DNA from: a bacterium
GTDB taxonomy: Bacteria; Krumholzibacteriota; Krumholzibacteriia; LZORAL124-64-63
DNA: 64,000 nucleotides
Direction of reading: 5' to 3'
Assembly: GCA_031441465.1 (NCBI GenBank)
Contig: JANOEP010000044.1
Location: 1 to 64,000 of the forward strand
Part shown: in pieces, positions 19,883 through 55,687 of the stretch
Position numbering within the stretch: the first letter of the stretch is position 1
How the letters are laid out: each line of letters begins with the position of its first letter
Notes under the pieces: model-generated
Told to the model about the DNA's origin: nothing
Seen by the model: only the letters and a program-made list of their open reading frames with translations
Databases searched by the model: none
Translations under genes and position numbers: made by a program

Positions 19883-20461
19883 GTGCATCGGCGGCGCACC
19901 TGGGTCCGGACTCTCTCGCTCCTGTTTAGCTTCGCCACGCTCATCCCCGCGAGCGCCGGCGCCCAATCGATCGTCATCACCCTGCAGGCACACTCCGATG
20001 TCGTCACCTCCGACCTTCACCGCTTCGGCGTGCACGACGACGCCCTGATGGGCCTGGACGGCTATGATCTGCCGGAACCGCCGCCGCCTCCCGGCAGCTA
20101 CCTGAGCCTGTCTTTCGTGATGCCCGGCGCGGCGACGGACCTGCCGAACCGCTGGCGCCACGAGCTGCGCCCGTCGGAGATCTTCATGGATCAGACCGAG
20201 ACCTGGGAGCTGGTCCTGGAGACCGACCAGGTCGGCCGGCCGCTGTTGCTGGACTTCGCCGCGGAGATCGGGGCGCAGTACCCGCTGGCCGTGACGATCG
20301 TCGCGCCGCCGGAGCGCGCGTACCGCGTCGAGCTGCCGGCCCAGCTGCCCTTCGTGGCGCTGGCGCCCGTCACGACGCTCCGGCTGGAATTGACGTCCGA
20401 CGATCCCGTCGCTACGCAAGACGTCGATTGGGGCGCGCTCAAGCGGCGGTACGAGCGATGA
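19883..20461 (+). CDS. Secreted hypothetical protein with WGxxK tail
   Basis: Signal peptide ending AGA; GLDGYDLPEPPPPPGSYL domain shared with the 21239 gene; ends DWGALKRRYER. Confidence 0.65.
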   Translation: MHRRRTWVRTLSLLFSFATLIPASAGAQSIVITLQAHSDVVTSDLHRFGVHDDALMGLDGYDLPEPPPPPGSYLSLSFVMPGAATDLPNRWRHELRPSEIFMDQTETWELVLETDQVGRPLLLDFAAEIGAQYPLAVTIVAPPERAYRVELPAQLPFVALAPVTTLRLELTSDDPVATQDVDWGALKRRYER

Positions 20462-20507
20462 GTGCAGCTTGGATCGGGAGCAATTCCTTCATGACGGGAG
20501 CTCGACC

Positions 20508-21101
20508 ATGCGATGCCGGATCCCCTCCACTCTGGTCCTGGTCGTCGCCCTGCTGACCGCGGCGAGCGGCGATCTGGCGCAGACCGACGCCTTCTGCATC
20601 AGCGAAAACGAGACGGGAACCGGAGGTTGGGGTTGCACCAACATCCCCGCCTTCGTGCCGACGAACATTTACCTGTGCCTGCTCCACCCGAGCGGGGAAC
20701 AGGTCTTGGCCTGGGAGGCCAGGATCATTCACGACAACGCCACCGCCATGGTCGGCTCCTGGGTGGTCAACGGCGTGGATTCCCACCCGGACGCCGAGAA
20801 TTTCGTCGTCACCTGCGTGGTCTCACCGCTGTATCCCAACCCGCAGGATATCGTCGTGCTGGGCTCGATGCAGGTTATCGTCCTGAATCCGAGCGAGCGC
20901 ATCGAGTTCTTCATCGGCCCGATTCCCGGATCCACGAACTTCCCCGCAGGCACGCCCGGTTACGTCCACACGATGGGCATCAACACGCCCGCCACCGTGT
21001 GTAGCGGCGAATACGCTTTGCCGGTGTTCCACATCAACATGTGCCTCATGGACGCGGTGGAGGAAGCCGACTGGGGTGCGATCAAGGCGCTGTACGAGTG
21101 A
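20508..21101 (+). CDS. Secreted hypothetical protein with WGxxKxxY tail
   Basis: Signal peptide; strongly similar to the N-terminal domain of the 21239 gene; ends DWGAIKALYE. Confidence 0.75.
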   Translation: MRCRIPSTLVLVVALLTAASGDLAQTDAFCISENETGTGGWGCTNIPAFVPTNIYLCLLHPSGEQVLAWEARIIHDNATAMVGSWVVNGVDSHPDAENFVVTCVVSPLYPNPQDIVVLGSMQVIVLNPSERIEFFIGPIPGSTNFPAGTPGYVHTMGINTPATVCSGEYALPVFHINMCLMDAVEEADWGAIKALYE

Positions 21102-21238
21102 TGAGCGCTTCGTGCCGGCAAGGCCGTGATTCCCGCCGGCGTGCCGGCGTGCGTCCACCCGCGCCCGCTCAATCCGAGCGGCAACCAGATCATGGTCCTC
21201 GATGCCAGATTCACCGATCCCCATCACGGAGGCCATCC

Positions 21239-23566
21239 ATGAGCATGTCCACCCGGTTCTACCTGACGATCTTCGCCGCCCTGCTCGCCCTGTCCGGCGC
21301 CGCGCTGGCGCAGCAGGACGCCTTCTGCATCTGCGTCGACCCGACGGATCCCGCCGAATGCGGCGGCAACGCCGACATCCCGATGTTCGTGCCGACGAAC
21401 ATCTACCTGTGCCTGCTCAATCCGAGCGGCAGCCCGGTCCGGGCCTGGGAGGCCCGGATCACGAACACCAACCAGTCGGGCATGATCGGAACCTGGGTGA
21501 TGTCCGGGCTGGACGTCGACAACGACCCCATGGACTTCGTCATCGGCAACGGCGCCTCGCCGCTGGTCCCGAATGCGCAGGATGTCGTCGTGATGGGCTC
21601 GATGCAGGTCATCATCCTGAACGCCAGCACGCCCGTCGAATTCTATATCGGGCCGATCCCGGGTTCGGGCACGTTCCCGGGCGGCACCCCGGGCTACGTG
21701 CACACGCTAGGGTTCAACACGCCTGCGACCGTGTGCGGCGACGACTTCACACAACCCGTCTTCAGCATCAACGGCGACAACCCGCCGCCCTTCGAGGACT
21801 CCTTCACCGTGACCATCTCGTCGACGCTCGGCGCCTACCACGACTTGAACAACCTCGCCGGCATGGAAGCGAGCGCGACGGACGGCCTGGACCCAAACCT
21901 CGATATCCCCGAGCCGCCGGCCCCGCCGGCGGGATTCGCGTACCTGACCTTCCCGCATCCCGAGTGGGCCTCGCCTCTGGGTGACAATTTCCGCACGGAT
22001 TACAGGGCGACCTACGTGCCGGCGACCACGACCAAGACCTGGTCGCTGCATTTCACGACCGACCAGAGCGGCGTCGCGATGCTCGACTTCCAGCCGAGCT
22101 TCGACCAGACCGCGAACTGGGAGCTGACGTTGATCGACCTCGATTCCGGCGAGGTCGTGGATCTCTGGGGCGCAGGACTCGACTACTCGTTCAACGCCAT
22201 GCCGGGTCAAGTCCGCCACCTGGAGCTGCTGGTGGGCCCGACCCAGATCCCGCCCCTCAGCCCAACGTCCAGCCTCCTGCCGACCGGTTGGTCTCTGGTG
22301 GGCATGCCCCTGCTGCCGGACGCGCCGGGCACCGTGGGCTCGGTGCTGCTGGACGACATCGTCAGCCCCACGTTCGTCTACAGCCACACGGTGAGCTCCG
22401 GCTACCAGCAGCAGTTGCCGAACGACGTCATGCGGCAGGGCAAGGGCTACTGGGTGGGCGCGAACAACCCCTTCACCTGGACGATGGAGGGGCAGCGCGA
22501 CCTCAACGGCGCCTCGTTGGTCCTGAACAGCGGCTGGAACCTGCTCGGCGCGCCGTTGTGGACCGCCATGAGTATCGACGACATCAAGGTCGACTACCAG
22601 GGCACCCGTTACGACTACGCGACGGCGGTCCAGATGGGCCTCGTCGGCAGCTACGTCTATTTCTACCAGACCTCGACGGGCACCTACGTGACCCGGTCCA
22701 CCCTCCATCCCTGGCACGGTTACTGGGTACCCGCCTACATGAGCGGCGTCAGCCTGTGGTTCCACTACACCAACATCGGCCCCGACAAATCCACCCCGGC
22801 CGCCCCGATCTTCGAACCGAACGACCTGAACTGGCGCCTGAGCCTCGGCCTCGAGGGCAACCCCGAGTCCGTGGTCGTCGGTCGCCTCGAGAAGGCCGCC
22901 GACGGCTTCGACGCCGCCTGGGACCAGCCCCGCCCGCCGCGCGCGCCGGTCGCCGCGTCCCGGCCGGAGCTGTGGCTCGACGGTTCGGCCCTGCACCTCA
23001 GCACCGGCGACCAGCTCACGTCCGACTACCGCGCCGCGACGGACGCGGACGTGGCCTGGGACCTCGTCGTCACCGCGCCCGCGCCTGGGCCGGTCACGCT
23101 GCGCTGGGACGCCGCGGAGTGGGGCGGCCGCGAAGATCTGCAGCTGTACCTGCCCCACCAGAACCGCGTCGCGGTGATGTCGATGCGCGAGCGGTCGAGC
23201 TTGACACTCGATGTGGGCGCCGCGCCGATGATCGTGCGCCTGCGCACGCCGGACCTGTCGACCGGCGCGCCGGAGGTTGTCGCGGGCAGTTATCTGCTGC
23301 GCGCGGTGCCGAACCCGTTCAACCCGCGCACCGAGATCGTGATGACGCTGCCGCGCGCCGGCAAGGCCGAGGTGCGGGTCCACGACGTTCTCGGTCGCGT
23401 GGTGAAGCGCTTCGCGGTCGACGCGGCCGTGGCCGGGGAGAACCGCGTCACCTGGCTGGGCACCGACGATCGCGGCCGTGACGTGGCCAGCGGCGCGTAC
23501 TTCGCGGCGCTCTACGTGGATGGGGCCGCGTCGGGCGCGGTGGTCCGGTTGAGCCTGGTGCGCTGA
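21239..23566 (+). CDS. Multidomain secreted protein with FlgD-Ig/T9SS-like C-terminal domain
   Basis: GGAGG RBS; signal peptide; GWSLVGMP/GWNLLGAP repeats; PNPFNP...WLGTDDRG...SGAY tail. Confidence 0.8.
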   Translation: MSMSTRFYLTIFAALLALSGAALAQQDAFCICVDPTDPAECGGNADIPMFVPTNIYLCLLNPSGSPVRAWEARITNTNQSGMIGTWVMSGLDVDNDPMDFVIGNGASPLVPNAQDVVVMGSMQVIILNASTPVEFYIGPIPGSGTFPGGTPGYVHTLGFNTPATVCGDDFTQPVFSINGDNPPPFEDSFTVTISSTLGAYHDLNNLAGMEASATDGLDPNLDIPEPPAPPAGFAYLTFPHPEWASPLGDNFRTDYRATYVPATTTKTWSLHFTTDQSGVAMLDFQPSFDQTANWELTLIDLDSGEVVDLWGAGLDYSFNAMPGQVRHLELLVGPTQIPPLSPTSSLLPTGWSLVGMPLLPDAPGTVGSVLLDDIVSPTFVYSHTVSSGYQQQLPNDVMRQGKGYWVGANNPFTWTMEGQRDLNGASLVLNSGWNLLGAPLWTAMSIDDIKVDYQGTRYDYATAVQMGLVGSYVYFYQTSTGTYVTRSTLHPWHGYWVPAYMSGVSLWFHYTNIGPDKSTPAAPIFEPNDLNWRLSLGLEGNPESVVVGRLEKAADGFDAAWDQPRPPRAPVAASRPELWLDGSALHLSTGDQLTSDYRAATDADVAWDLVVTAPAPGPVTLRWDAAEWGGREDLQLYLPHQNRVAVMSMRERSSLTLDVGAAPMIVRLRTPDLSTGAPEVVAGSYLLRAVPNPFNPRTEIVMTLPRAGKAEVRVHDVLGRVVKRFAVDAAVAGENRVTWLGTDDRGRDVASGAYFAALYVDGAASGAVVRLSLVR

Positions 23567-23673: not shown

Positions 23674-24270
23674 ATGCGTTTCCCGCGCCCCGCGCCTGCC
23701 CTGTTCTTCGCCCTGATGCTCGGCGCCGCCGCCGCCGCGTCGGCCCAGTCCGACGTGTTCTGCGTTTGCACCGACGCCACGACCGGAACCTGCGGCGGGA
23801 ACCTCGAGGTGAGCGTGCCGGGGTCGTGCACCGTCTATCTGGTGCTCGCGCAGCCGTCGGGGTCGCCGGTGATGGCCTGGGAGGCCCGGGTGACCGTCGA
23901 GGGGTCGGCCACCTACGTGGGCGGCTGGACGCTGGCGGCCGGCTTGAACGTGGGCAGCGGCGACAACTACACCGTCGGACTGCAACTGGGCGGCCTGAAC
24001 GGCCTGATGCCCAACGGCGTCGGCTTGGTGCCGCTGATGTCCATGACCGTGATGCTGCTGGGGGAGGGCCCGCTGCTCTTCAAGGTGGGGCCCGTGCCCG
24101 GCTCGGCCAGTTTCCCGGACGGGACGCCCGGCTACCTGGTGGGCGCGGACACCCTGAAGCCGGCGTCGGTCTGCAGCGGCTCTTTCGACCGGGCCGTGTT
24201 CACCCTGAACAACGGCGACGCCGACGAGCAAGGCACCTGGGGCGAGGTCAAAACCCTGTATTCGCACTGA
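23674..24270 (+). CDS. Secreted hypothetical protein, paralogue of the 20508 gene, WGxxKxxY tail
   Basis: PSGSPVMAWEAR and GPVPGSASFPDGTPGY shared motifs; ends TWGEVKTLYSH. Confidence 0.75.
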   Translation: MRFPRPAPALFFALMLGAAAAASAQSDVFCVCTDATTGTCGGNLEVSVPGSCTVYLVLAQPSGSPVMAWEARVTVEGSATYVGGWTLAAGLNVGSGDNYTVGLQLGGLNGLMPNGVGLVPLMSMTVMLLGEGPLLFKVGPVPGSASFPDGTPGYLVGADTLKPASVCSGSFDRAVFTLNNGDADEQGTWGEVKTLYSH

Positions 24271-28526: not shown

Positions 28527-30071
28527 ATGGCCGAGCTTCCCGCCAGGAACCTCAAGGCGTTCATCGCCTTGCTCGAGCAGGCCGGCGACCTGGTGCGCGT
28601 CCGGGAGCCCGTCGATCCCGTCCTGGAGGCCGGCGAGATCGCCGACCGCTTCGTCAAGGCCGGCGAGGGCCCCGCCCTGCTCTTCGAGGACCCGCGCCCC
28701 GGCCGCTGGAGCGAGCGGGCCGGCCGGACGGCCCGGGCCACGGCGTCCGACGGCCGGCCGGTGCCCCTGGCCATGAACCTGTTCGCCTCGCGCCGCCGCA
28801 TGGCCTGGGCCCTGGGCTGCGAGTCGTTGGAGGAGGCCGTCGCCCGGGTGCGCGAGCCCCTGGAACTCGCTCCCCCTGAGGGGCTTTGGGAGAAGTTGAA
28901 GCTGCTGGGCAAGGCCCGCGACTGGAGCGCCGGCCTGCCCCGCTCGGTGGCCGGCGGACCCTGCCAGGAGGTCGTGGTCCGGGGCGAGGAGCTGGACCGC
29001 CGCGGCATCCTGGACCTGATGCCCGTGCTGACGACTTGGCCGCAGGACGGCGGTCCCTTCATCACCCTGCCGCTGGTCATCACCCGCAACCCCGAGACCG
29101 GCCGGCGCAACATCGGCATGTACCGGCTGCAGGTCTTCGACGGCCGCACCACCGGCATGCACTGGCAGCTGCACAAGACCGGCGCCGACCACTACCGCGC
29201 CTACGAACGGCGCTGCGAGCGCATGCCCGTCTGCGTGGCGCTCGGCGGGCCGCCGTCGCTGACCTACGCCGCGACGGCGCCGCTGCCGCCGGAGATCGAC
29301 GAGTCGATGTTCGCGGGCTTCCTGCAGGGCGCCCCGATCGCCTGGACCAAGGCCCTCACCTGCGACCTGGAAGTGCCGGCCGAGGCCGACTTCGTGCTGG
29401 AGGGCTACGTCGATCCCGGCGAGCGCCGCCGCGAGGGGCCGTTCGGCGACCATACCGGTTTCTACACCCTGCCCGAGGAGTTCCCGGTCTTCCACGTGAC
29501 CGCGATCACCTCGCGCCGCGATCCCGTCTACCCGTCGACCATCGTGGGCATCCCGCCCATGGAGGACAAGTGGCTGGGTTGGGCCACCGAACGCCTGTTC
29601 CTGCCGCTGATGCAGAAGCCGCTGCCCGAGGTCGTCGACTACCACCTGCCGCCGGCCGCCTGCTTCCACAACCTGGCGATCGTGGCGATCCGCAAGCAGT
29701 ACCCCGGGCACGCGCGCAAGGTCTGCCACGCGCTGTGGGGGATGGGCCAGATGATGTTCTGCAAGACCATCGTGGTGGTCGACGCCGAGGTCGACGTCCA
29801 CGACCCATCCGGCGTGCTGTGGCGCGTGACCAACTCCATCGACCCCAAGCGCGACACGTTCTTCGTCGACGGGCCCGTCGACCACCTCGACCACGCCGTG
29901 AACGTCCAGTTCCTGGGCGGCAAGATGGGGATCGACGCCACCGCGAAGTGGGAGGGCGAGGACGGCTACCGGCGCGAGTGGCCGCCGATCGTGCGCATGG
30001 ACGACGCGGTCAAGCTCGATGTCGCGGAGCGCTGGCGCGACCTCCTGGCACAGGCGGGGCGGCAGAAGTGA
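28527..30071 (+). CDS. ubiD: UbiD-family decarboxylase (menaquinone biosynthesis, MqnL-like)
   Basis: GPALLFE, WPQDGGPFIT, EGPFGDHTGFY, GGKMGIDAT. Confidence 0.93.
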   Translation: MAELPARNLKAFIALLEQAGDLVRVREPVDPVLEAGEIADRFVKAGEGPALLFEDPRPGRWSERAGRTARATASDGRPVPLAMNLFASRRRMAWALGCESLEEAVARVREPLELAPPEGLWEKLKLLGKARDWSAGLPRSVAGGPCQEVVVRGEELDRRGILDLMPVLTTWPQDGGPFITLPLVITRNPETGRRNIGMYRLQVFDGRTTGMHWQLHKTGADHYRAYERRCERMPVCVALGGPPSLTYAATAPLPPEIDESMFAGFLQGAPIAWTKALTCDLEVPAEADFVLEGYVDPGERRREGPFGDHTGFYTLPEEFPVFHVTAITSRRDPVYPSTIVGIPPMEDKWLGWATERLFLPLMQKPLPEVVDYHLPPAACFHNLAIVAIRKQYPGHARKVCHALWGMGQMMFCKTIVVVDAEVDVHDPSGVLWRVTNSIDPKRDTFFVDGPVDHLDHAVNVQFLGGKMGIDATAKWEGEDGYRREWPPIVRMDDAVKLDVAERWRDLLAQAGRQK

Positions 30072-30835
30072 GCGACCTCGACCACGCCCACGCCCGCGGC
30101 CGCGACGGCGTGGTGGGCGATCCCGCCGCCCACGACCGCGCCGTGCGGTCGATGTTCGCGCGGATCGCGCACGTCTACGACTTCATGAACCACGCCCTGA
30201 GCTTCAACCGCGACCGCGCGTGGCGGCGCGACCTCGTGCGCGCCCTCGACCCCGGCACCGACCTGCTGCTGGACCTGTGCGCGGGCACGGGCGACCTCGG
30301 CCTCGCGGCCCTGCGCGGTGGCCGCTGCCGCCGGGTCGTGGCGGCCGACTTCACGCCGGCGATGCTGAAGGCGGGCCGCGGCAAGGGGCTCGGCGCGGAA
30401 ATCCCCGCCGTGGCCGCCGACGCCCAGGCGCTCCCGCTGCGCGCCGGCTGCGCCGACGCGATCGCCGTCGGTTTCGGTGTGCGCAACCTGGCCGACCTGC
30501 GCCGCGGCCTGGCCGAGATGCGGCGCGTCCTGAAGCCGGGCGGCCGCTTGCTGGTGCTCGATTTCTTCCGCGACGACCCGGCCGCCGCCGGCCCGAGCCG
30601 CGGCGCCGCCCGCCCGCTGCGCCGCGGGCTGGACCTGGCGCTGCCGCTGGCAGGCCGGCTGCTCGGCCGCGATCGAGCCGCCTACGCCTACCTCGCCGCC
30701 AGCCGGGACCGCTTCGTGACCCCGGCGCAGTTCACGGCGCTGCTCGGCGAGTTCGGCTTCCGGGACATCCTGGTGCGCCGTCAGACCCTCGGCATCGCCC
30801 ACCTGATCGGCGGGCGGCTCGACCACCAGGAGTGA
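30068..30835 (+). CDS. ubiE: UbiE/MenG-family quinone C-methyltransferase
   Basis: MFARIAHVYDFMNHALSF..D..WR; LDLCAGTGD; FGVRN; RVLKPGG. Confidence 0.88.
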   Translation: MSDLDHAHARGRDGVVGDPAAHDRAVRSMFARIAHVYDFMNHALSFNRDRAWRRDLVRALDPGTDLLLDLCAGTGDLGLAALRGGRCRRVVAADFTPAMLKAGRGKGLGAEIPAVAADAQALPLRAGCADAIAVGFGVRNLADLRRGLAEMRRVLKPGGRLLVLDFFRDDPAAAGPSRGAARPLRRGLDLALPLAGRLLGRDRAAYAYLAASRDRFVTPAQFTALLGEFGFRDILVRRQTLGIAHLIGGRLDHQE

Positions 30836-30845
30836 GGAGAGAGTC

Positions 30846-31478
30846 ATGGACCGCGAAAGGATCCCGTCGCCCCCGATCACGGTCGCCTGGACCGGCGCCA
30901 GCGGCTTGGTGTACGGCGTGCGCCTGGTGGAGGTCTTGCTGAACGCGGGCCGCGACGTGGCGCTGCTGCGCAGCGACGCCGTCGAGCAGACGGCGGCCGC
31001 CGAGCTGGGCCGTGCCCCGCGTGCGCTGGTCGAAGAGCTGCGGCAGGTCGCAGTCGCCCGCGGCGCGGCGCTGCGCGAGTACGGCAAGCACGAGTTTTCG
31101 GCGCCGGTCGCCAGCGGCTCGGCGCCTTCGGGCGGCATGGCGGTGTGCCCCTGCTCGATGAGCACGCTGGCCCGCATCGCCACCGGCACCGGCGACGATC
31201 TGCTGCATCGCGCCGCCGACGTGCAACTGAAGGAGCGGCGGCGCCTCGTGCTCGTGCCGCGAGAGACCCCGCTGGCGGTCCACCACCTCGAGCACATGGC
31301 CCGGCTCGCCGCCGCCGGCGCCGTGATCCTGCCGGCGATGCCCGGCTTCTACCAGCGACCGGCGACCGTGCAGGACCTCGTCGACTTCGTGGTGCAGCGC
31401 GTCTGCGACCAACTCGGCGTCGCGGTGCGCCTGGCGCGGCCGTGGGGCGACGCCGACGCCCCGGGAGAACCGGCATGA
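30846..31478 (+). CDS. ubiX: UbiX flavin prenyltransferase
   Basis: TGASG, ASGS, PCSMSTL, LVLVPRETPL, PAMPGFY. Confidence 0.93.
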   Translation: MDRERIPSPPITVAWTGASGLVYGVRLVEVLLNAGRDVALLRSDAVEQTAAAELGRAPRALVEELRQVAVARGAALREYGKHEFSAPVASGSAPSGGMAVCPCSMSTLARIATGTGDDLLHRAADVQLKERRRLVLVPRETPLAVHHLEHMARLAAAGAVILPAMPGFYQRPATVQDLVDFVVQRVCDQLGVAVRLARPWGDADAPGEPA

Positions 31479-32383
31479 CGACGGGACGCGGCGCACCGCG
31501 CGGTCGCGGCTGGCGGACCGTCGGCGACTACTTCGGGCTGGTGAAGTTCGAGCACACCGTCTTCGCCCTGCCGTTCGCCCTGATCTCGCTGCTGGTCGCC
31601 ACCGCCGGTCGCCCTTCGCGGCGCCTGCTGTGGGGCGTGCTGGCGGCGATGGTCGGCGCGCGCTGCGCGGCGATGGCCTTCAACCGCCTCGCCGACCGCG
31701 GCTACGACGCGCGCAACCCGCGCACGGCCGACCGCCACCTGCCCGCGGGGCGGATCGGGGTGGCCGGCGCGGCGACCTTCACGCTGGTCAGTGCGATCGT
31801 CTTCCTGCTGGCCGCCCGCAGCCTCAACCCGCTGTGTTTCGCGCTGGCGCCGGCCGCGCTCGCGGTGGTCCTCGGCTACTCCTACGCCAAGCGGTTCACC
31901 CCCTGGTCGCACCTGGTGCTGGGCCTAAGCCTGGGCATCGCGCCGACGGGTGCGTGGCTCGCGGCCACCGGCGCCTTCGCCGCGTTCCCGCTGTGGATGT
32001 CGGCGGGCGTGATGCTCTGGGTCGGCGGGTTCGACGCGATCTACGGCTGCCAGGACGTCGAGATCGACCGGAGCGAAGGGCTGCGCTCCCTGGCGGTCCG
32101 CTTCGGCGTGCCCGGCGCGCTGGGGATCGCCAAGGGCCTGCACGTGCTGGCCGTGCTGTGCCTCGCGTTCGCGTACCGCGCGGCGCCGACGTTGGGCGCG
32201 ACGGCGGACCTGGGCCTGTGCGCGCGCCTCGGCCTGATCGTCATGACGCTGCTGCTGGTCTGGGAGCACCGCCTGGTGCGCGGCGGGGATCTGCGCCACA
32301 TCGACCGGGCGTTCTTCACCATCAATTCCTGGATCGGGATGCTCCTGCTGCTCTTCGTCGCCTGCGACGTCTACCTGGTCTGA
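31475..32383 (+). CDS. UbiA-like polyprenyltransferase (MqnP-like)
   Basis: VKFEHTVFALPFA, AMAFNRLAD..YDARNPRT, YSYAKRFT, GFD.IY..QD. Confidence 0.9.
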   Translation: MTTGRGAPRGRGWRTVGDYFGLVKFEHTVFALPFALISLLVATAGRPSRRLLWGVLAAMVGARCAAMAFNRLADRGYDARNPRTADRHLPAGRIGVAGAATFTLVSAIVFLLAARSLNPLCFALAPAALAVVLGYSYAKRFTPWSHLVLGLSLGIAPTGAWLAATGAFAAFPLWMSAGVMLWVGGFDAIYGCQDVEIDRSEGLRSLAVRFGVPGALGIAKGLHVLAVLCLAFAYRAAPTLGATADLGLCARLGLIVMTLLLVWEHRLVRGGDLRHIDRAFFTINSWIGMLLLLFVACDVYLV

Positions 32384-32768: not shown

Positions 32769-33722
32769 ATGAAGACTCGTTACAGCATGCTGGCCGTCGT
32801 CCTGATGCTCGGCCTGGCCACGTCCGCGATGGCGACCGGGACGATCGGCCTGTTCTTCGACACCGAGGGCAACAGCGCCCAGCTCGTCGGCGAGCCCACG
32901 ATGGTCTACGACGGCTACGTCCTGATCAACAACTCCGACATGCTGCTCGGCGGGGCGGCCTTCAAGCTCGAGTCCGAGGGCGGCTTCATGATCGTCAGCG
33001 AGACCTGGGCTCCGGGCTTGCTGTTCGGCACCCTGCTGACCGGCGCCGAGATCGGTCTCTACACGCCCATCGCGCAGTTCGGCAACGACCCCCAGTCGAT
33101 CTGCCACATCCAGGTGTTCTCGCCGACGATGATCGTCAACTCGCACCAGACCATCGTCGCCGACCCGGACTACGCCACGCCGGTGCTGGCGAACACGTCC
33201 GCCATCCTGTTCCCGGCCGACGGCCTGACCTCCAGCATCACGCTGCGCCCGACCCCCCAGATCGGCGTGTTCTGGGACGAGGCCGGCACCCAGGGCGTGT
33301 TGATCGAGAACGGCGGCATGACCGAGATCCACAACGCCTGGATCATGGTCCGCAATGCCGAGATGATGGTCGGCGGCGCCGCCTTCAAGCTGGTCCTGGA
33401 TCCGCGCATCATGATCCTGAGCGCGACCCCGGCTTCGGGCCTGATCTTCGGCAGCCTGTCGGCCGGCGTCGAGATGGGTCTGTACAGCTACCTGCCCGTG
33501 TTCGGCACCGACCCGGGCCTGCTGTACACCCTGCAGATGACGACCTTCAACAACCTGATGGTCAACGCCGAGCTGTCGATCGTCAATCATCCCAGCTACG
33601 ACGCGCCCAAGGTGGCGGACAACAGCGCCGTCCAGTGGACCGCCGAAGGCCTGACCTCGTACCTGACCATCCCCGTCGGCACCGAGGAGATGAGCTGGGG
33701 CCAGGTCAAGAGCCTGTACTAG
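32769..33722 (+). CDS. Secreted protein with two tandem copies of a beta-rich domain and WGxxKxxY tail
   Basis: Signal peptide; duplicated IG(L/V)F.D..G...M..GGAAFKL...GL.FG.L..G.E.GLY; ends SWGQVKSLY. Confidence 0.8.
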   Translation: MKTRYSMLAVVLMLGLATSAMATGTIGLFFDTEGNSAQLVGEPTMVYDGYVLINNSDMLLGGAAFKLESEGGFMIVSETWAPGLLFGTLLTGAEIGLYTPIAQFGNDPQSICHIQVFSPTMIVNSHQTIVADPDYATPVLANTSAILFPADGLTSSITLRPTPQIGVFWDEAGTQGVLIENGGMTEIHNAWIMVRNAEMMVGGAAFKLVLDPRIMILSATPASGLIFGSLSAGVEMGLYSYLPVFGTDPGLLYTLQMTTFNNLMVNAELSIVNHPSYDAPKVADNSAVQWTAEGLTSYLTIPVGTEEMSWGQVKSLY

Positions 33723-42243: not shown

Positions 42244-43242
42244 ATGAGATCGTCGACCCTGATCGTCATGGCGTTGCTCGTTGCGGTGCCGGTCGCGGCC
42301 GCGCCGCGGGTCGCCGGCGACACCATCGAAAGCGCCATGGGCATCGCCGCCCTGCCTTACCTCGACACCGGCTCCACCACCATGGCCTTCGACGACTACG
42401 ACGAGACCTGTTCCTGGGACGGGAGCGGGTCGCCGGACGTCGTCTACGCGATCAAGCTGCCCGCCGACGCGTACGTCACCGTCGACCTCTGCGGCTCGAC
42501 CTACGACACCCGCGTCTACGTCTACGACCAGGCCCGGGCCGTCATCGGCTGCAACGACGACAGCGGCAGCACGGATCCCCTCTGCAACCCGCCCGATTCG
42601 CGGATCGACGCCCTGCGGCTCGAGGCCGACGTCCCCTACTACATCATCGTCGACGGCTTCGGCGGCGACAGCGGCGGCTACGTCCTGAAGGTGAGCGTCG
42701 CCGACATCCCCGTCCTGGTCTGCCCCGGCGGCGCCCGGGTCGAGGGCGAACCGCCGCTGGTGTTCGACGTCGACGACGCGTTCAACTGCGGTTGCGCTTG
42801 CGCGAGCCCGCCGGACCGGTTCCAGAAGCTCGGGGCCGACGCCGCGGGTTCGACCTACGCCTGCCTCCGCTCCGGCTGGAACGGCTACCCCGGGGCCCCC
42901 GTGTTCGACGAGGACTGGCTGACGGTCATCGTCGGACCGGACGGTCTGCTCCATTTCGAACTCGTCGTCGAAAGGGCGACGGAACTCATCGTGCGCCGGG
43001 CCACCTGCGAGACCGCCGTGTACTACGGTTACGTCACCGCGGAAGCGAACGAGCCCGCGACCCTGGACGTCCATCTCGCCCCCGGCACGCCGATATGGGC
43101 CGTGCTGAGCCCTTCACCCTTCTTCGATCCGGGCATCGTCCTGCCCCTGGAGTACGGCCTCCACTTGACCATCGACGGCCAAGCCACCGCCACGGCGAAC
43201 GAGGGACGGAGCTGGGGGGAGATCAAGGCGGTCTACCGGTAA
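42244..43242 (+). CDS. Secreted paralogue 2 of 3, WGxxKxxY tail
   Basis: Collinear similarity to the 41078 gene; ends SWGEIKAVYR. Confidence 0.78.
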   Translation: MRSSTLIVMALLVAVPVAAAPRVAGDTIESAMGIAALPYLDTGSTTMAFDDYDETCSWDGSGSPDVVYAIKLPADAYVTVDLCGSTYDTRVYVYDQARAVIGCNDDSGSTDPLCNPPDSRIDALRLEADVPYYIIVDGFGGDSGGYVLKVSVADIPVLVCPGGARVEGEPPLVFDVDDAFNCGCACASPPDRFQKLGADAAGSTYACLRSGWNGYPGAPVFDEDWLTVIVGPDGLLHFELVVERATELIVRRATCETAVYYGYVTAEANEPATLDVHLAPGTPIWAVLSPSPFFDPGIVLPLEYGLHLTIDGQATATANEGRSWGEIKAVYR

Positions 43243-43367
43243 GGCCCGGCCGGCCGGTGTGATTTTGCTGGTACATGCCATGGTTGCTGATACGCTACGA
43301 TCGTTGTCCGATGCAACCGGAGAAGGACGAACTCGGCGACATCGACCCGCTCATGGAGGAGAGGACG

Positions 43368-44450
43368 ATGAAAGCGAACACCCTGGTATTGATCCTGCTG
43401 CTGTTCGCAGCCCCCCTGCTCTCGACCCCCTTGGCCGCCCGGAACCCCGACGCCTGGTCCCAGCAGAAGCCCCACCGTCCGGCGCCGCCCGCCGCCGCCG
43501 CAACCGACGCGCGTGACGGCGGTGACACGATCATGGAGGCGGTGGAGATCGCCGGCCTGCCCTACGCCGACAGCGGCTTGACGACCAACGCCGCCGACGA
43601 CTACGACGCGGTCTGCCCCTTCGAGGGCAGCGAATCGCCCGACGTCGTCTACGCCTACACTCCCGTTTCCGGCGGCGCGATCGCGATCGATCTCTGCGGC
43701 TCCGACTACGACACGAAGGTCTTCGTCTACGACATCGCGATGAACGTCGTCGCCTGCAACGACGACTTCTACCCGTCCGGCGACCAGGTCTGCGGCGCCT
43801 ACGCGTCGAAGATCGAGTACCTCGAGGTCCAGGCGGGAACCACGTACTACATCATCGTCGACGGCTACGACGGCGAGTCCGGCGCGTACCAGCTGGCCGT
43901 CGCGCCGGCGACGGCCGCCGGCCTGGAGTGCCCGGCCGGCTTGCGCGTCGAGGGCGAACCGCCGCCGGACGCCGGCGGGGACGACGTCTTCAACGGCGGC
44001 TGCACCACCGGCGGGTTGCACTTCCAGACCATCACGGGCGGCCTCGACGGCATGCTCGAGATCTGCCAGATCTCGGGCTGGAACGACAGCCAGGCCGCCT
44101 ACATCTACGACGTCGACTGGCTCGAGGCGACGGTAGGTCCGGGCGGGCTGTTCCACTGCGAGTTCGACGCCGACTGGACGATGGACTGCCGGGTGTTCAG
44201 CGCCGATAACTGCTTCTTCACCCAACAACTGGCGTACGCCAGGGGCGGCCGCGGCGTGATCGGGACGATCGATCTGGAACTGACTCCCGGCGCCGTCATC
44301 TGGCTGTACTTCGCGCCGGCCAGTTCGAGCCCGCCGATCGACGTGACGCCTTACACGTTCGACTACACGCTCGACGTGTCGGGCCTCGAACCGGCGGCGG
44401 CGGCCAACGAGGCGATGGGGTGGGGGGCGGTCAAGAGCCTGTATAAATAG
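43368..44450 (+). CDS. Secreted paralogue 3 of 3, WGxxKxxY tail
   Basis: Same motifs, more divergent; ends GWGAVKSLYK. Confidence 0.78.
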   Translation: MKANTLVLILLLFAAPLLSTPLAARNPDAWSQQKPHRPAPPAAAATDARDGGDTIMEAVEIAGLPYADSGLTTNAADDYDAVCPFEGSESPDVVYAYTPVSGGAIAIDLCGSDYDTKVFVYDIAMNVVACNDDFYPSGDQVCGAYASKIEYLEVQAGTTYYIIVDGYDGESGAYQLAVAPATAAGLECPAGLRVEGEPPPDAGGDDVFNGGCTTGGLHFQTITGGLDGMLEICQISGWNDSQAAYIYDVDWLEATVGPGGLFHCEFDADWTMDCRVFSADNCFFTQQLAYARGGRGVIGTIDLELTPGAVIWLYFAPASSSPPIDVTPYTFDYTLDVSGLEPAAAANEAMGWGAVKSLYK

Positions 44451-48161: not shown

Positions 48162-50342
48162 TCAACGGGCGAGGGTGATCTTGGCCGTACGGCGGGCCGC
48201 GGCGGATCCGTCCTGCGGGCTGCTGAAGAAGGTGGCGAAGTAGATGCCGGCCGGGCAGGCGCGCCCGTCCCGGTCGCGGCCGTCCCAGGACGCGGAGCGC
48301 TCGCCGGCGGGGGCCGGGGGCAGGGCGTGTGCGTGGACGAGGCGTCCGCGGATGTCGTGGATCTCCAGGCGGTCGCGGCTCGGGGCGGCGGTCCGCCAGC
48401 GCAGGATGCCGCGGCCGTGGAAGGGGTTGGGCAGCGGGGGCAGCAGGCTCAGGCCCGGGCCGTCGGCGCCGTCGCCCACCGCGACGACGACGTCCGCGGC
48501 GTGCAGCAGCCAGCCCTGGGGATCGACCGTCACCCCGGTCACCGCGGCGGGGACGGGCAGCCGGAAGTCCATGATCCGCCGGTCCACCCACAGGGCCACC
48601 GGGATGTCTCCGGCGGCGGTGGTGAGCGTCAGGTCCAACGGCATGATGAAGGGTTCGTCGCCGGTCAGGGGATCCGGCGGCTGGACCTGGCGCAGGTCGA
48701 GGTGCAGCACGTTCTGCCCGAATTCCTGCTCGTTGAACCAGGTCAGCGCCAACTCGGGGTGGGTCGTGCGCAGGAGCCACTGGTCGAAGAACCAGTCGAG
48801 CTGTTGGCGGCTGGTGCGCTCGCAAGAGCCGACGAAGTCCGCTGTGGTGACCGCCGTGTGGGAAACGTCGCGGTTCGTGATGTACTCGCGCAGGGCGTCG
48901 AAGAACATCTGGTCGCCGAGCACCCGCCGCAGCATGTGCAGCACCCAGGCGCCCTTGTGGTAGACCAGATCGTCGAAGTAGTACCAGGGGTCCGCGACGC
49001 CGGGCTCCCGCAGCAGGGGCGTGTCCCAATTCGTGAAGTTGCTGCGCGCCTTCATGAACCACTTCAGGGCGCTCGGGCCGGAGTTGTGCTCGCGCCACAG
49101 CCCCTCGACGTAGGTCGCGAACCCTTCGTTCAGCCAGACGTGGGTCCAGTCGGCGCAGGTGACCTTGTTGCCGAACCACTGGTGGGACAGCTCGTGCATG
49201 ATGATGGTGTCGAAGAAGTGGTCGCCGCGCACGAAGTGGGACCCGTACGAGGTGGCTGTGGGGTGCTCCATGGCGCCGTCCCACTCGAACAGGGCCATGC
49301 CGTACTTTTCGCCCGGGAACGGGTAGGCCCCGAACTTCGACTCGCAGAACGCCATCATGGCGCCCAGTCGTTCGAAGTCGACGACGGCATCTTCCACGAG
49401 GTTGGGGTAGACGTAATGGGTCAGCGGCAGATCGCCGCCGATGCCGGCGTAGATTTCCTGGAGCACGACGTAGTCGCTGACGGCGACCGACAGGTGGTAG
49501 GTGCTCAGGGGCTGGGCCTCGCGCCAGCAGAACAGCTCGGTCGTCGCCGGGTCGCGACCCGCGAGCGGCGAGCCGGGCGGGGCGAGGGCGACGGCGCCAG
49601 GCAGGTAGGGGTGCGGCGGCGGCGCGGCCAGCGGCGCGCCGTTGGAGACGCCGATCAGGCCCGCGGGCACCACCAGCATGATGTCGCAGGTGGCCTTGTC
49701 CAGGGGGTAGTCCTTGCACGGCCACCAGGAACGGGCGCTCCAGGGTTCGCTGAGGCTGGCGGCGATCGGCTCGCCGTCGGGCCGCGTCGTGAACTGGAAG
49801 CCGAAGAAACCGGCCGGTTGGGGCGCACCGCTGAAGAACACGGCGACGGTCAGCGTGTCGACGGGCGAAACGGACGCCGCCAGCGACACGCGCAGCAGGT
49901 CGCCGTCGCGCTGCCAGGGCAGGGGCGTGAACACCGTGCTGATCTCGCCGGCGCCGCTGACGCCCATGCCGGCGGCGAAGTCCAGGACCAGCTCGCCGAC
50001 GCCGGCCTGGACCGGCGTGAAGGTGACGAAGCAGGCGCCGCTCAGGACTTCCTGGTCGATGTTCACGTCGAGGTAGAGGGCGTAGTGCAGGACGTCGATG
50101 GCATCCTGCTCGGGTGTCGCCTGGGGCATCCGGTCGGCAGTGAAGGCGGCCGCGGCGGCCAGGGCCCGTGCCTTGCCTTCGTACGCCCAGGAGTCCGGGC
50201 TTTGGTCGGCCAGGAGGTGGTCGGTCGTGGTTCGAACGGCAGGATCGGTGACGGGCGCGGCGAAGCCCGCGACGGGCGACAGCAGCGCGACGCACAGCAG
50301 AGCGGCGACTAGGCCGGCGGATGTCTTGGGCGATGTGTGCAT
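48162..50342 (-). CDS. Secreted M1-family aminopeptidase with FlgD-Ig C-terminal domain
   Basis: GAMEH, HELSHQWFG...WLNEGFATY, YHKG; PNPF tail. Confidence 0.92.
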   Translation of the reverse strand: MHTSPKTSAGLVAALLCVALLSPVAGFAAPVTDPAVRTTTDHLLADQSPDSWAYEGKARALAAAAAFTADRMPQATPEQDAIDVLHYALYLDVNIDQEVLSGACFVTFTPVQAGVGELVLDFAAGMGVSGAGEISTVFTPLPWQRDGDLLRVSLAASVSPVDTLTVAVFFSGAPQPAGFFGFQFTTRPDGEPIAASLSEPWSARSWWPCKDYPLDKATCDIMLVVPAGLIGVSNGAPLAAPPPHPYLPGAVALAPPGSPLAGRDPATTELFCWREAQPLSTYHLSVAVSDYVVLQEIYAGIGGDLPLTHYVYPNLVEDAVVDFERLGAMMAFCESKFGAYPFPGEKYGMALFEWDGAMEHPTATSYGSHFVRGDHFFDTIIMHELSHQWFGNKVTCADWTHVWLNEGFATYVEGLWREHNSGPSALKWFMKARSNFTNWDTPLLREPGVADPWYYFDDLVYHKGAWVLHMLRRVLGDQMFFDALREYITNRDVSHTAVTTADFVGSCERTSRQQLDWFFDQWLLRTTHPELALTWFNEQEFGQNVLHLDLRQVQPPDPLTGDEPFIMPLDLTLTTAAGDIPVALWVDRRIMDFRLPVPAAVTGVTVDPQGWLLHAADVVVAVGDGADGPGLSLLPPLPNPFHGRGILRWRTAAPSRDRLEIHDIRGRLVHAHALPPAPAGERSASWDGRDRDGRACPAGIYFATFFSSPQDGSAAARRTAKITLAR

Positions 50343-51801: not shown

Positions 51802-51802
51802 A

Positions 51803-51840: not shown

Positions 51841-51856
51841 TGGAACGCGGCGCGGG

Positions 51857-54802
51857 TCAACGCGCGAGCGTCACTTTGATCGAGCGCTCTTTTCCGTCGG
51901 CGGTCAGCCTCACCACGTAACTTCCCGAAGCAGCAACGCGTCCGCGCTCGTCGCGACCGTCCCAGACCAGCGCCTGCCAGCCGGCCGGTCGCGCGGTCAT
52001 CGCCAGTTCGCGAACCAGCCTCCCCATCTGGTCGTAAACGGCAAGACGGATCCGGGACGCCGCCGGCAACCCGAAGCGGATCGTCGTGCTGGGATTGAAG
52101 GGATTGGGATAACTCTCCAGCGCGAACGGCGCCGCGGGGGTGCTCGGCCCGGCGCCGGTGACGTCCTGCGGCCGCAACAGGCCTGGGGCACCCCGGTTCC
52201 CGTGCACGTCAACGCCCGCCACCTTGTAATAGGAACCGCTTCCGGTCTCCCACGACGCGTCGGTCCAGATCGTGTCACGCAAAGAGGCGACCAGACTGGC
52301 CTCGTTCACTGGGAAGTCCGGACTCGTGCCGCGGTGGACCTCGTAGCGGTCGAGGTCCGCTTCGGTATTCGGATGCCAGGCGAGGTCGAGCCGCGCCGGA
52401 CCGAACTGTGCGCGGCCGGCCAGCCCCTGTAGCAGCGCCGGCGCCAGGTTGTCGACCGAGCGCGCGCTGTCGGGCGGCGACGCCCAGAACACGGCGGGAT
52501 CGGCCGTGTGCGCGAGGACCTGGACGTAGGTGGGATCGTCGCAGACCGCGGTGGAGTCGAACAGCGTCGGGACGGTCTCCGCGTAGCCGGGCAGGTAGTA
52601 CGCGTCCAGCGAGGAGATCAGCCGCCAGTAGAAGGTCCGGCCGTCGAGGGTTTCCGTCCGCAGTTCCCGCTGTGGGGCGGCCGCTTTCTGGAGCGCCGCT
52701 TCGGCGGCGGTGATGGCGCGCCAGACCGTGTAGCGGGTGATGAGCCGCTGCTGCGCGTCGTCGCCGGGGCTGGCGTGCCACGAGAGGTCGAGCAGGCCAC
52801 CCTGGTCGCCCGGGACGTCCCGCACCGCGTGGAGGCGCGGCACGCGGTCGCCGGCGCCGCTGCACGCGACGCCGGGGCAGGCGACTCCGGTCGTGATCAT
52901 GGCGGCCGCCGGCTCGACCGCGACGGGGGAGAAGCGGACCACCACGTCGAGCGTGTCGCCGTGGCCGAGGTCGAAGGGCCCGGCGCCCTGGACGAGGCTG
53001 AAGGGCGAGGCTGGCGTGTCGACGGTCCCGGTCAGCCGGCAGCCGCCCTGGTTCGTGACGACGAACGGGAGATCCGCGTGCTGCCCGATCGACACGACGC
53101 CGAAGTCCAGCGACGCGGGCGCGACCAGGCAGGAGGGATCGACGCCGAGGCCGGTGAGCGGGATGTCCGCGCAGCCGCCGAGCCCGATGTCCAGGGTGCA
53201 GGCGTGCGTCCCGCCGGAGGTCGGTTCGCAGCGCACGGTCACCGCCAGCTGTTCGCCGGCGCCGAGGCTGAATGGGCCGCCGCCCGCCAGGACGGTGAAA
53301 TGGTCGCACGATTCGGAGACGTCGCCGGTCACGACGCCGCCGCCGTCGTTGCTGATGACCAGCGTGCTGTCCCTGTAGGCTTCCACCTGCCCGAAGTCGA
53401 GCTGGTCCGGCTCGACCCGGCACAGGGGCGTCGGCTGCGCGAAGATGTCCGTGCCGCCGCCGCCGCCGCTGCGGGCGTCCCACCAGGCGACCAGCTCGTT
53501 GCTCGTGGTGAGGGTGGCGGGGTAGGGGTAGGTCTGGTCGCCGTCGGCCGCGCACAGGACGAGCCCGTCGGCCGCCCACCGCGCGGCGCCGTTGGCGTCG
53601 ACCTGCTGGACGTAGATGTCGGCGTCGGCGCCGCGCTGGTCGTGCCAGGTCACGACGGCGCCGCCGTCGCCGTCGGCGACGACCCGGGCGCCCTGCTGGT
53701 GGCCGCTCGCATCGCAGATCGCGAGTCCGGCGGTTCCCCACATCAGATCCCCGGTGGAGCGTACGCGCTGGGCGTAGATGTCGTAGTTGTAGTTTCGCAT
53801 GTCGCGCCAGACGACGATCGCGCCGCCGTTGCCGGTGCTTGCGATCTGGGGGTTGTCGGCGGCCGGCAAGCCGGAGGAGAACATGACGACGCCGCCGGCT
53901 CCCCACTGGACGGTGCCCGTGGTATCGATGCGCTGAGCTGAGATCGTGGAGGTGCCCAAACCGTTCGTACACCAGGCGATGACGGCTCCCGTCCCGCCGT
54001 CGTCGACGATCTGGGGGCTGATCCTATTGTACATAGGGGTGTAAGGTGAAATCTGCACGCCGCCGCCGCTCCACATCGTGGCGCCGGTGCTCAGTAGTCG
54101 CTGGGCGTAGATGGTGCTGTTGGCGCTGCGGCCGTCCTGCCAGACGACGATCAGCCCACCAAGGCCGTCGGAGGCGAGCCGGGGCACGCTCTGGTTGCCG
54201 CTCACGCCGGAGACGTTCACACCCTGCGTCGTCCACTGCCCCGTTCCGTCCGGGGACAGCCGTTGCGCGTAGATGTCCTCGTTGCCGGCGGTGCGGCTGT
54301 CGGCCCAGACGATGAAGGCGCCGCCCGCCCCGTCCGCCGTGATCCGGGCGTATTGCTGGGTACCGGACATCGTGCAGACCGGAACACCGTTCGCCGCCCA
54401 GAGACAGACACCGGACAGGCTCACCTTCTGGGCGTAGACGTCGGAATTGCCGGATCTGGTGTCCTCCCAGACGACGACCACGGCCTCCGGATCGACCAGC
54501 GCCAGGCCCGTGAAGTACTGCGCCGAGGCACCCGTGCACACCGCGACGCCGTCGAGGCCCCAGAGCGGTTCCCCGGCGGCGTCCATCCTCTGTGCGTAGA
54601 CGTCGAGGTTGCCGTTGCGGTTGTCCCGCCAGGCGACGACCGTCCCGCCGGTGCCGTCGGACACGACGCAGACCTCGCTCTGATCGCCGGCCGACCGGCA
54701 GACGGGAACCCCGTCGGGCACCCAGGCGGACGTCGGCGCCGCCGAGGCGAGCAAGATCGCCAGGGCCGCGATCGCGGTTGTCGTGAAGGTGGTCCGGGTC
54801 AT
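51857..54802 (-). CDS. Secreted protein: repeated DG.GG...W.D.R...DIYAQ units (beta-propeller-like), two choice-of-anchor-D/ASH Ig domains, FlgD-Ig C-terminal domain
   Basis: About seven W.D.R..D(I/V)YAQ repeats; two LDFG.V Ig repeats; YPNPFNP tail. Confidence 0.82.
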   Translation of the reverse strand: MTRTTFTTTAIAALAILLASAAPTSAWVPDGVPVCRSAGDQSEVCVVSDGTGGTVVAWRDNRNGNLDVYAQRMDAAGEPLWGLDGVAVCTGASAQYFTGLALVDPEAVVVVWEDTRSGNSDVYAQKVSLSGVCLWAANGVPVCTMSGTQQYARITADGAGGAFIVWADSRTAGNEDIYAQRLSPDGTGQWTTQGVNVSGVSGNQSVPRLASDGLGGLIVVWQDGRSANSTIYAQRLLSTGATMWSGGGVQISPYTPMYNRISPQIVDDGGTGAVIAWCTNGLGTSTISAQRIDTTGTVQWGAGGVVMFSSGLPAADNPQIASTGNGGAIVVWRDMRNYNYDIYAQRVRSTGDLMWGTAGLAICDASGHQQGARVVADGDGGAVVTWHDQRGADADIYVQQVDANGAARWAADGLVLCAADGDQTYPYPATLTTSNELVAWWDARSGGGGGTDIFAQPTPLCRVEPDQLDFGQVEAYRDSTLVISNDGGGVVTGDVSESCDHFTVLAGGGPFSLGAGEQLAVTVRCEPTSGGTHACTLDIGLGGCADIPLTGLGVDPSCLVAPASLDFGVVSIGQHADLPFVVTNQGGCRLTGTVDTPASPFSLVQGAGPFDLGHGDTLDVVVRFSPVAVEPAAAMITTGVACPGVACSGAGDRVPRLHAVRDVPGDQGGLLDLSWHASPGDDAQQRLITRYTVWRAITAAEAALQKAAAPQRELRTETLDGRTFYWRLISSLDAYYLPGYAETVPTLFDSTAVCDDPTYVQVLAHTADPAVFWASPPDSARSVDNLAPALLQGLAGRAQFGPARLDLAWHPNTEADLDRYEVHRGTSPDFPVNEASLVASLRDTIWTDASWETGSGSYYKVAGVDVHGNRGAPGLLRPQDVTGAGPSTPAAPFALESYPNPFNPSTTIRFGLPAASRIRLAVYDQMGRLVRELAMTARPAGWQALVWDGRDERGRVAASGSYVVRLTADGKERSIKVTLAR

Positions 54803-54883
54803 GGCTGATCTCCCTCCGCTTCGGTGGTGCCGGCAGGAACGGGGGCGCGGACCGGCGGCCGCGCCCTCCTCATCGATGGGACT

Positions 54884-55687
54884 TCATCGGTACATGCTCT
54901 TGATGGCCCCCCAGCTCGTGGTGTCTCCGGCGACCGCACCGCAGTCGCAGGCCGTCGCGCAGAGGTTCACGGGCGTGATGACGCCGCCGCAGTTGAAGTT
55001 GAGCGCGAAGCAGCAGACCGCGGCGAAGGGCACGGTCGCGTCGGCCGACACGGCGAGGTGGCCGCTCCAGCCCGGCGGCACCGGGTTGGGCGCGGGCGAC
55101 AGGTCCTCGTTCAGCAGCGCGACGTTCCAGCCGGCGCACACGCCGGCGAACCACCAACCGGCCCAGCCCGGGCACATCGTCACGACGTGGATCATGGAAT
55201 GGCCGAAGCCCGGGCAGACCAGCAGATTGCCGAAGTGGGCGTTGACCTGGCCGCCGGGGGCGCCGTTGAAGAACCAGATGATGTCCACGTTGCCGTCCCA
55301 GTGGTCCTCGGGTCCGCAGTAGTCCTTGTCCCCGGTCGGCATGAGCCAGGGCAGGGTCTCGGTCGCCGAGGGAGGCAATTCCTCCCGCAGAACCTCCAGG
55401 AAGACGTCGAAGAAGCTGTCCGGCATCATCGGCGGTATCTGGAAGGTGCCGATCGTGCCGTGACGAGGCAGGAAGGCGCCGTACTCCTGCGAGAAGAGTT
55501 CGCCCGACGCCAGTTCAGAGGTCTGGGTGCCCGCGTTGTGGAACTGGACGTGGAAGGCGACCATGGCTCCCTGCGTCTCCCAGTCGACGGCGACGACCTC
55601 GAGCCCGCCCTGCGCCGCAGTGGCCGCAGGCAGCAGCAGAACCGCAGCCGCGACCAAGCAGAGTGCGATACGTAGCTTGTGGTGCAT
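54884..55687 (-). CDS. Secreted Cys-rich hypothetical protein with WGxxKxxY tail
   Basis: Signal peptide; DSFFDVFLEV motif; ends SWGAIKSMYR. Confidence 0.72.
   Translation of the reverse strand: MHHKLRIALCLVAAAVLLLPAATAAQGGLEVVAVDWETQGAMVAFHVQFHNAGTQTSELASGELFSQEYGAFLPRHGTIGTFQIPPMMPDSFFDVFLEVLREELPPSATETLPWLMPTGDKDYCGPEDHWDGNVDIIWFFNGAPGGQVNAHFGNLLVCPGFGHSMIHVVTMCPGWAGWWFAGVCAGWNVALLNEDLSPAPNPVPPGWSGHLAVSADATVPFAAVCCFALNFNCGGVITPVNLCATACDCGAVAGDTTSWGAIKSMYR

Follow-up and report, generated by a model that had tools for sequence, protein, structure and literature searches.

The window analysed here, i.e. the whole stretch of 64,000 nucleotides at positions 1 to 64,000 of contig JANOEP010000044.1 (assembly GCA_031441465.1; Krumholzibacteriota), encodes eight exported proteins that end in the same short tail, represented by the motif WGxxKxxY. 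The genome which holds it, designated here as G000 (window G000:C44:1-64000), measures 3.49 Mb and is 96.8% complete. The tail is real and not a product of chance, and is apparently an undescribed sorting tag with a specific candidate receptor, a lipoprotein, and a specific candidate pore, the large outer-membrane barrel encoded beside it.

Tails in the window and across the genome

On the forward strand, the tail was observed on an exported protein of 192 amino acids (aa) with the weakest of the eight tails (19883-20461, tail 20405-20461), on an exported protein of 197 aa (20508-21101, tail 21048-21101) and its exported paralogue of ~198 aa (23674-24270, tail 24214-24270), and on an exported protein of 317 aa (32769-33722, tail 33672-33722). 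Three tandem paralogues follow on the same strand, i.e. an exported Cys-rich protein of 352 aa (41078-42136, tail 42083-42136), a second of ~332 aa with a weak PPC-domain match (42244-43242, tail 43189-43242) and a third for which the start is possibly at 43368 (43311-44450, tail 44397-44450). The last, an exported Cys-rich protein of 267 aa, is encoded on the reverse strand (54884-55687, tail 54884-54937). All eight tails were found at the stops and with the residues quoted in a preliminary description of the window. Five other window proteins carry a PNPF-type C-terminal domain (CTD) resembling that of type IX secretion systems (T9SS), as that description had also reported: a FlgD_ig/T9SS-like protein of 775 aa with an N-terminal domain common to two tail proteins (21239-23566, forward strand) and, each without the tail, a CARDB and FlgD_ig protein (8667-13136, forward strand), an LTD and FlgD_ig protein (37442-39448, reverse strand), an M1 aminopeptidase (48162-50342, reverse strand) and a β-propeller/Ig protein located directly downstream of the 54884 tail gene (51857-54802, reverse strand).

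Across G000, the motif is confined to C-termini rather than occurring equally at internal positions, which the preliminary description had named as an argument against a signal. The pattern [WF][GS]x[VIL]Kxx[YFW] ends 68 of the 2,753 called genes, compared with 0.07 expected from its five internal matches, and WG..K..[YF] was detected 48 times in six-frame stop-to-stop segments, with the Trp 8-11 residues from the stop in 46 cases. The genome-wide profile search that had been proposed returned 63 tails scoring at least 24, every one of them terminal, while the next best match scored 13. Six further tails have Phe in place of Trp, giving 69 in total. The sole non-terminal profile match (G000:C73:5377-5871, score 13) is located in a frame with low GC content at third codon positions that overlaps a CTD gene, and a 46-codon fragment with a good tail (G000:C15:1334-1474) is probably a gene remnant.

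The conserved part of the tail comprises ~17 residues, with the consensus [PAT]-V-[APG]-[NAT]-E-x-x-[ST]-W-[GS]-x-[VIL]-K-[AST]-[LM]-[YF]-R-stop. The signal is thus short, as first described, yet longer than the proposed ~12 residues, including as it does a conserved upstream Glu; ~14 residues touch the receptor in the model presented below. Trp, Val/Ile, Lys and Tyr are positioned at i, i+3, i+4 and i+7 behind an N-cap Ser/Thr/Asp, with a median hydrophobic moment of 0.52. This spacing and moment would also suit a generic amphipathic membrane-binding helix without a protein receptor, reminiscent of the MinD membrane-targeting sequence. Such an explanation is very improbable: binding to lipid would not require Trp-Gly, Lys and the upstream Glu to be nearly invariant, and the predicted fit into a specific pocket, for which controls scored 0.02, favours a protein partner. 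The tail is matched by no model of Pfam or NCBIfam, which speaks against the catalogued sorting family that the preliminary description had considered as an alternative. The Atlas returned only unnamed short clusters (scores 0.83-0.86), the tail profile had no match among PDB sequences, and no description of the tail or of the barrel-lipoprotein module was found in the full-text literature, subscription journals and supplements being outside this search.

Signal peptides, assigned by a crude hydropathy rule, were identified in 62 of the 63 tail proteins with starts selected for fit, the 63 including one doubtful fragment of 46 aa; with automatic starts, 47 of 62 were positive, compared with 838 of all 2,753 genes. 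None of the 63 proteins has a lipobox, and two contain any 19-residue hydrophobic window after residue 35, in agreement with the reported lack of a transmembrane helix. The 63 proteins represent 49 BLAST families, so that the tail is indeed shared by unrelated families, and no overlap was observed between them and the 123 terminal-CTD proteins of G000. TIGR04183, PF18962 and PF13860 likewise gave no match in the eight window tail proteins or in the 54 others scanned with Pfam.

The cargo looks extracellular and small, as judged from its sequences. Tail proteins in G000 have a median length of 227 aa and a maximum of 381, compared with a median of 755 aa for CTD proteins. Nine of the 54 non-window tail proteins passed the Pfam cut-off, with LTD (three times), cohesin, CBM20, DUF642, TSP3, Kre9-like and temptin domains, and β-helix proteins are common among the tail proteins of other genomes. 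Nine long tail reading frames were checked, of which seven proved to encode proteins of 206-326 aa; the other two, at 506 and 621 aa, led us to drop the idea of a strict upper limit on size. Cargo size is likewise similar for PEP-CTERM proteins, and E-x-S/T-S/T-W resembles their PEPxxW, a likeness that is superficial. A truncated PEP-CTERM-type signal processed by an exosortase is nevertheless hardly credible, given the lack of a transmembrane helix and the absence of exosortase (PF09721) matches in the 96.8% complete G000, a search in which the control rang in 1 of 14. PEP-CTERM proteins (TIGR02595) also gave no matches in G000, and no control rang.

Passenger domains are shared between the two groups of proteins, which supports the view of the tail as a C-terminal signal module that can be exchanged for the T9SS-like CTD. 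Seven of the 63 tail proteins have homologues among the CTD proteins of G000 (BLAST). In the cleanest swap, the tail protein G000:C64:54637 is 67% and 56% identical to the CTD proteins C36:11633 and C18:419, respectively, and tail and CTD begin at the same point. In the window, the protein at 20508 is 59% identical to the CTD protein at 21239 over 154 aa; the sharing of the 20508/23674 domain that had been noted was confirmed, but this domain corresponds to residues ~25-180 of 775 aa and is far from the CTD. Visual comparison points to a resemblance between the 19883 tail protein and the second domain of 21239 (an acidic, Pro-rich motif in both), possibly a further signal swap, for which BLAST reported no match at E 1e-4.

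G000 harbours T9SS-like machinery, i.e. SprA above cut-off, a PorU-like protein (402.7 bits; cut-off 420) and 13 PorV-family matches (eight above cut-off), together with eight C25 peptidases. GldM of the PorLM/GldLM motor had no match in G000, and no control genome matched either. A weak PorV-family match is located just past the window on the same contig (G000:C44:67897-68964). The tail could accordingly be imagined as a minimal alternative T9SS signal, read by a PorV-family barrel, with cleavage by the PorU-like sortase taking place at the linker upstream. The machinery itself is consistent with this, as are the swapped passenger domains, the looser linker [TS][GAP][VAI][GPED] seen before 47 of 195 tails of other genomes, and one operon (L078, G000:C47:170-9705) in which genes for a TonB-dependent receptor, a CTD protein, a PorV-family barrel and a glucoamylase-like CTD protein are followed by a tail gene. 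The linkers in G000 differ, however. The pattern T[GA][VAI], corresponding to a cleavage linker of PorU type (T/G-I or T/G-V), was seen ahead of 51 of 110 CTDs, compared with 3 of 63 tails; [VTS][APG][VTNA]E shows the opposite bias, with 27 of 63 tails and 6 of 110 CTDs. The linker had been described as similar in the two groups; this was not borne out, and the tie to a T9SS sortase is weakened as a consequence. Furthermore, type A CTDs are described in PMC11969387, which covers short CTDs and the cleavage site, as β-sheet or β-sandwich domains of 40-80 residues with motifs B, D and E, and the short CTDs treated there are still β-sheets of 40-55 aa with these motifs, whereas the tail is a predicted helix. 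As a T9SS origin would also leave the helix at the end of lipoprotein A and the fit in the pocket of lipoprotein B (see below) unexplained, it is considered improbable.

A barrel-lipoprotein module

Clustering of the gene neighbourhoods at 109 tail loci revealed no dedicated enzyme or transporter; a CTD gene was present nearby at 25 of these loci. At L093, five paralogous cargo genes stand in a tandem array. The candidate receptor emerged instead from proteins with multiple motif copies in a global search, which returned 1,465 clusters. Among the best 150 matches, the motif lies within 17 residues of the end in 149, and 13 belong to one lipoprotein family with two to four motif copies each, a number which is not a frequency, because extra motif copies raise the score. 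The extra copies are positioned in tandem, behind each domain copy or right behind the signal peptide; apart from these 13, one other of the best 150 has a second motif match.

G000 encodes four members of this family. Three of them, lipoprotein A, lipoprotein B and its paralogue B', form an operon outside the window with a 688-aa outer-membrane barrel (G000:C51:17386-21604), and a further B paralogue is located at C10:96325. Genes that we take to be rsmA-like and secD-secF-like flank the module, and the former is its immediate upstream neighbour in 18 of 20 loci examined. Barrel and lipoprotein genes are adjacent at 20 of 20 of these loci, which come from two other phyla and were chosen by their lipoprotein match. 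At one locus (L110), a tandem array of at least six tailed lipoprotein-B paralogues was observed, together with one with a decayed tail, and at another (L300:6153-6812) lipoprotein A is seemingly split over two frames, an apparent frameshift or assembly error.

Alignment of A with B (probability 99.8%) places a helix in the same columns. Among distant A homologues, 69 of 76 end in [DST]-W-[GAS]-x-[FLI]-K-x-x-[YF]-[RK]. Scored with a profile made from cargo tails only, 75 of 76 exceed the 99th percentile of 2,690 other C-termini in G000. In the family of G000, the A helix is degenerate yet aligned and conserved. B of the operon usually stops just before the helix position, and the extra B paralogues are often tailed. 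By these sequence comparisons, the tag is homologous to the last helix of A, and the conserved barrel-A-B operon tracks the tag. A and B are both predicted to adopt the NTF2 cone fold, which was modelled for A (best Z 14.1, root-mean-square deviation (rmsd) 2.3, 122 aligned residues; confidence score (pLDDT) of the C-terminal helix 97) and assigned to B by homology to A. Weak DUF4440 and SnoaL_3 matches of the lipoproteins fall below cut-off, and a search of A against PDB sequences gave nothing better than E 0.3.

The modelled barrel has 28 strands, counted from the DSSP list, lacks a plug domain and reaches a mean pLDDT of 85.5. The best match by fold is MtrB of the MtrAB complex (PDB 6r2q chain B; Z 19.4, rmsd 9.0, 488 aligned residues, 10% identity); the matches in general represent generic barrels with an rmsd of 6-14, among which PapC and FimD rank low. 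Pfam gave no match at E 0.01, NCBIfam gave a single match at E 0.046, far below cut-off, and a barrel profile had no match among PDB sequences. Another protein considered as the pore has 1,158 aa, weakly matches a fragment of SprA and has unnamed relatives in the Atlas; it was rejected, as no tie to the tail was found. It is encoded at L076 (G000:C10:145514-162320) with a PorU-like sortase, PorV, an M6 protease, two unknown proteins, an NHL-repeat protein and an Omp85-like protein, and may represent a second, unnamed translocon.

Phylogenetic profiling, as had been proposed, showed the barrel to follow the tail between phyla. Among the sampled genomes of the phylum of G000, tails were found in 121 of 121 and the barrel in 118 of 121; the corresponding numbers are 35 of 41 and 41 of 41 in an Eisenbacteria-labelled phylum (that of G127), and 1 of 41 and 0 of 41 in a tail-poor, Gemmatimonadota-labelled phylum (that of G168). 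The barrel is nearly always single-copy in the two tail-rich phyla and is present in 45 of 48 genomes picked by tail match. A weak barrel match in genome G176 proved to be another family, and a tail-pattern match in G180 lies in a 17-codon frame.

In a Zixibacteria-labelled phylum (that of G135), lipoprotein A was detected in 11 of 41 genomes. The profile gave three weak matches in these 41, and the phylum was provisionally regarded as cargo-free; this was abandoned, as a pattern search finds a conserved cargo that the profile mostly misses. A conserved tail-bearing exported protein of ~140 aa is present in 10 of 10 module-positive genomes (L310, L316, L319, L326, L331 and L352-L356), and no tail gene was found in five genomes without a lipoprotein match. 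This protein, the sole tail cargo found there, has no Pfam match; its gene adjoins what is presumably a Rex-like gene in 9 of 10 loci. It may correspond to the founding substrate.

Predicted docking and proposed route

Residues 25-203 of lipoprotein B were modelled in three runs with the last 32 residues of the window protein at 54884. The complex scored 0.86, compared with 0.02 for the best control; the mark applied is reached by 116 of 157 solved complexes and by 2 of 215 mismatched pairs, counts which apply only approximately to the alignments used here. The runs agree in at least 92% of contacts, with a partner pLDDT of at least 59, and modelled contacts are limited to partner residues 19-32 (~14 residues). 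The invariant Lys of the tail is predicted to touch F76, Y91 and D96 of B, and Trp-Gly to touch Q199 and D201. At both D96 and D201, 38 of 38 aligned rows have Asp or Glu; the equivalent positions of A carry an acidic residue in 34 and 35 of 35 rows, respectively. A PDB search by sequence found no solved relative. The model supports binding with a predicted docking mode, and it is quite probable that the tail binds lipoprotein B.

The explanation that best accounts for the data as a whole, to which we assign a probability of about 0.6, is that the tail represents a donor helix and that its receptor is lipoprotein B of the barrel module. The reading given in the preliminary description is partly supported, with the evidence directing attention from the T9SS to an NTF2-fold lipoprotein as receptor, co-encoded with a large barrel outside the window. 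According to this scheme, the cargo would pass the inner membrane by means of its signal peptide, as its sequence suggests. By alignment and by the model of A, A and B share the NTF2 fold, with A ending in its own copy of the helix and B stopping just before the helix position, which leaves the pocket of B empty. The cargo tail would then fill this pocket in trans, its Lys being caged, in the model, by aromatic residues and an acidic residue. B would be positioned at the barrel, and the cargo would pass through, or be displayed from, the plug-less pore, constituting a small-cargo route parallel to the T9SS-like system. B paralogues with tails of their own may chain together or occupy themselves.

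Export by the module across the outer membrane is rated at even odds or marginally better; it is favoured by the size bias, by the lack of a CTD on domain-swapping proteins and by the empty large pore. Alternatively, B and its paralogues may only tether the cargo, either in the periplasm or on the surface after another route, while the barrel has a separate substrate or just assembles or displays the lipoproteins. The docking model and the conserved acidic positions fit such tethering equally well, the module is single-copy and surrounded by housekeeping genes, including where a single cargo is present, and arrays of tailed B paralogues could serve as a scaffold. Conversely, tail proteins lack a CTD and hence have no other evident exit, a genome may have as many as 115 tail matches, compared with three B proteins in G000, and the size bias suits a pore better than a tether. 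Docking without export is therefore regarded as unlikely, although far from negligible.

Several observations weigh against the donor-helix reading or its extension to export. The A helix of G000 itself is degenerate, ranking only in the top 7% of C-termini, and does not score as a tail, and the profile-profile comparison of tail and A, taken alone, gave a weak match (probability 30%, E 0.0006). Natural in-cis fusions may have taught the complex model this fit, in which case it would signify compatibility rather than binding in trans; moreover, one pair was modelled, with the barrel, A and PorV outside the set, and it does not follow that B is the only or best receptor. Three of the 48 tail-picked genomes have no barrel match, including two drafts with 17 and 54 tails. 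The module is also present where cargo is scarce (6 of 41 genomes of the Eisenbacteria-labelled phylum have no tail at E 0.001) and may have a primary job other than exporting tail proteins. The size limit is soft, as illustrated by the proteins of 506 and 621 aa; these exceptions, the two tail-rich drafts and the module where cargo is scarce keep the tethering alternative alive. Genomes within a phylum are kin, mostly drafts, and some recur between sets, such that the counts are descriptive and not independent; in addition, the profiling covered the tail and the module, G000 also has the T9SS-like machinery, and co-occurrence alone cannot separate the two systems.

In its widest form, the proposal describes a new outer-membrane secretion system of several uncultured phyla, consisting of a 28-strand pore and two NTF2 lipoproteins, in which the helix of A was copied onto up to 100 unrelated proteins as an export signal recognized by donor-helix capture, with Zixibacteria-labelled genomes representing an early one-cargo state; this is given an even chance. 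If correct, the signal, receptor and pore of a rare new export route would have been identified together, and a peptide of 14 residues, a protein of 20 kDa and three genes in a laboratory host would be enough for a test. A destination would be provided for ~2.5% of G000 genes and at least 1,465 sequence clusters which are now hypothetical, the tag for export or display, at 14 residues, would be much shorter than a T9SS CTD, and the case would illustrate how part of a machine's own structure can turn into a sorting signal. If docking alone is true, a new peptide-receptor pair organizing the envelope of whole phyla would still result.

Elsewhere in the window, a heavy-metal RND efflux-like cluster (13375-19782) and a UbiD/UbiE/UbiX/UbiA-like cluster (28527-32383) were named from reading the sequence alone.

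Comparison with known systems

The T9SS CTD (TIGR04183 and PF18962; FlgD_ig-like, PF13860, in this genome) resembles the tail in being a C-terminal signal on signal-peptide proteins of many families, with exchangeable passengers, in the same genome. In the T9SS, a carrier binds this domain at a large barrel; PMC10994853 describes how PorV captures the CTD in SprA. The tail differs in being a predicted helix of ~14-17 residues rather than a β domain of 40-80 residues, in its linker and smaller cargo, and in its predicted receptor, an NTF2 lipoprotein instead of PorV.

Among tags recognized by processing enzymes, those of the PEP-CTERM/exosortase, LPXTG/sortase and GlyGly-CTERM/rhombosortase systems are similar in that a short C-terminal tag is carried by many small surface proteins, with paralogue arrays. 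The tail, unlike these, has neither a transmembrane helix nor a basic cluster and ends 8-11 residues past the Trp, and the evidence as a whole speaks for non-covalent capture rather than transpeptidation.

With regard to the pore, the MtrAB porin-cytochrome complex provided the best structural match of the barrel, albeit with poor superposition, and comprises a plug-less barrel with room for a protein inside. It differs in that the partners of the module are NTF2 lipoproteins in 20 of 20 loci, and not a multihaem (decahaem) MtrA. The Slam/type XI secretion system and LptDE are alike in that an outer-membrane barrel works with lipoproteins in export; the barrel described here has no family match in Pfam or NCBIfam above noise and a larger modelled strand number.

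An analogy to the proposed mechanism would be found in chaperone-usher and type V pili, which rely on donor-strand complementation. Here too, a terminal element would complete the incomplete domain of another protein beside an outer-membrane pore, and self-tailed B subunits could, by analogy, chain. The difference lies in the element donated, i.e. a helix into an NTF2 pocket as opposed to a strand into an Ig fold, and no sequence relation between the two was found.

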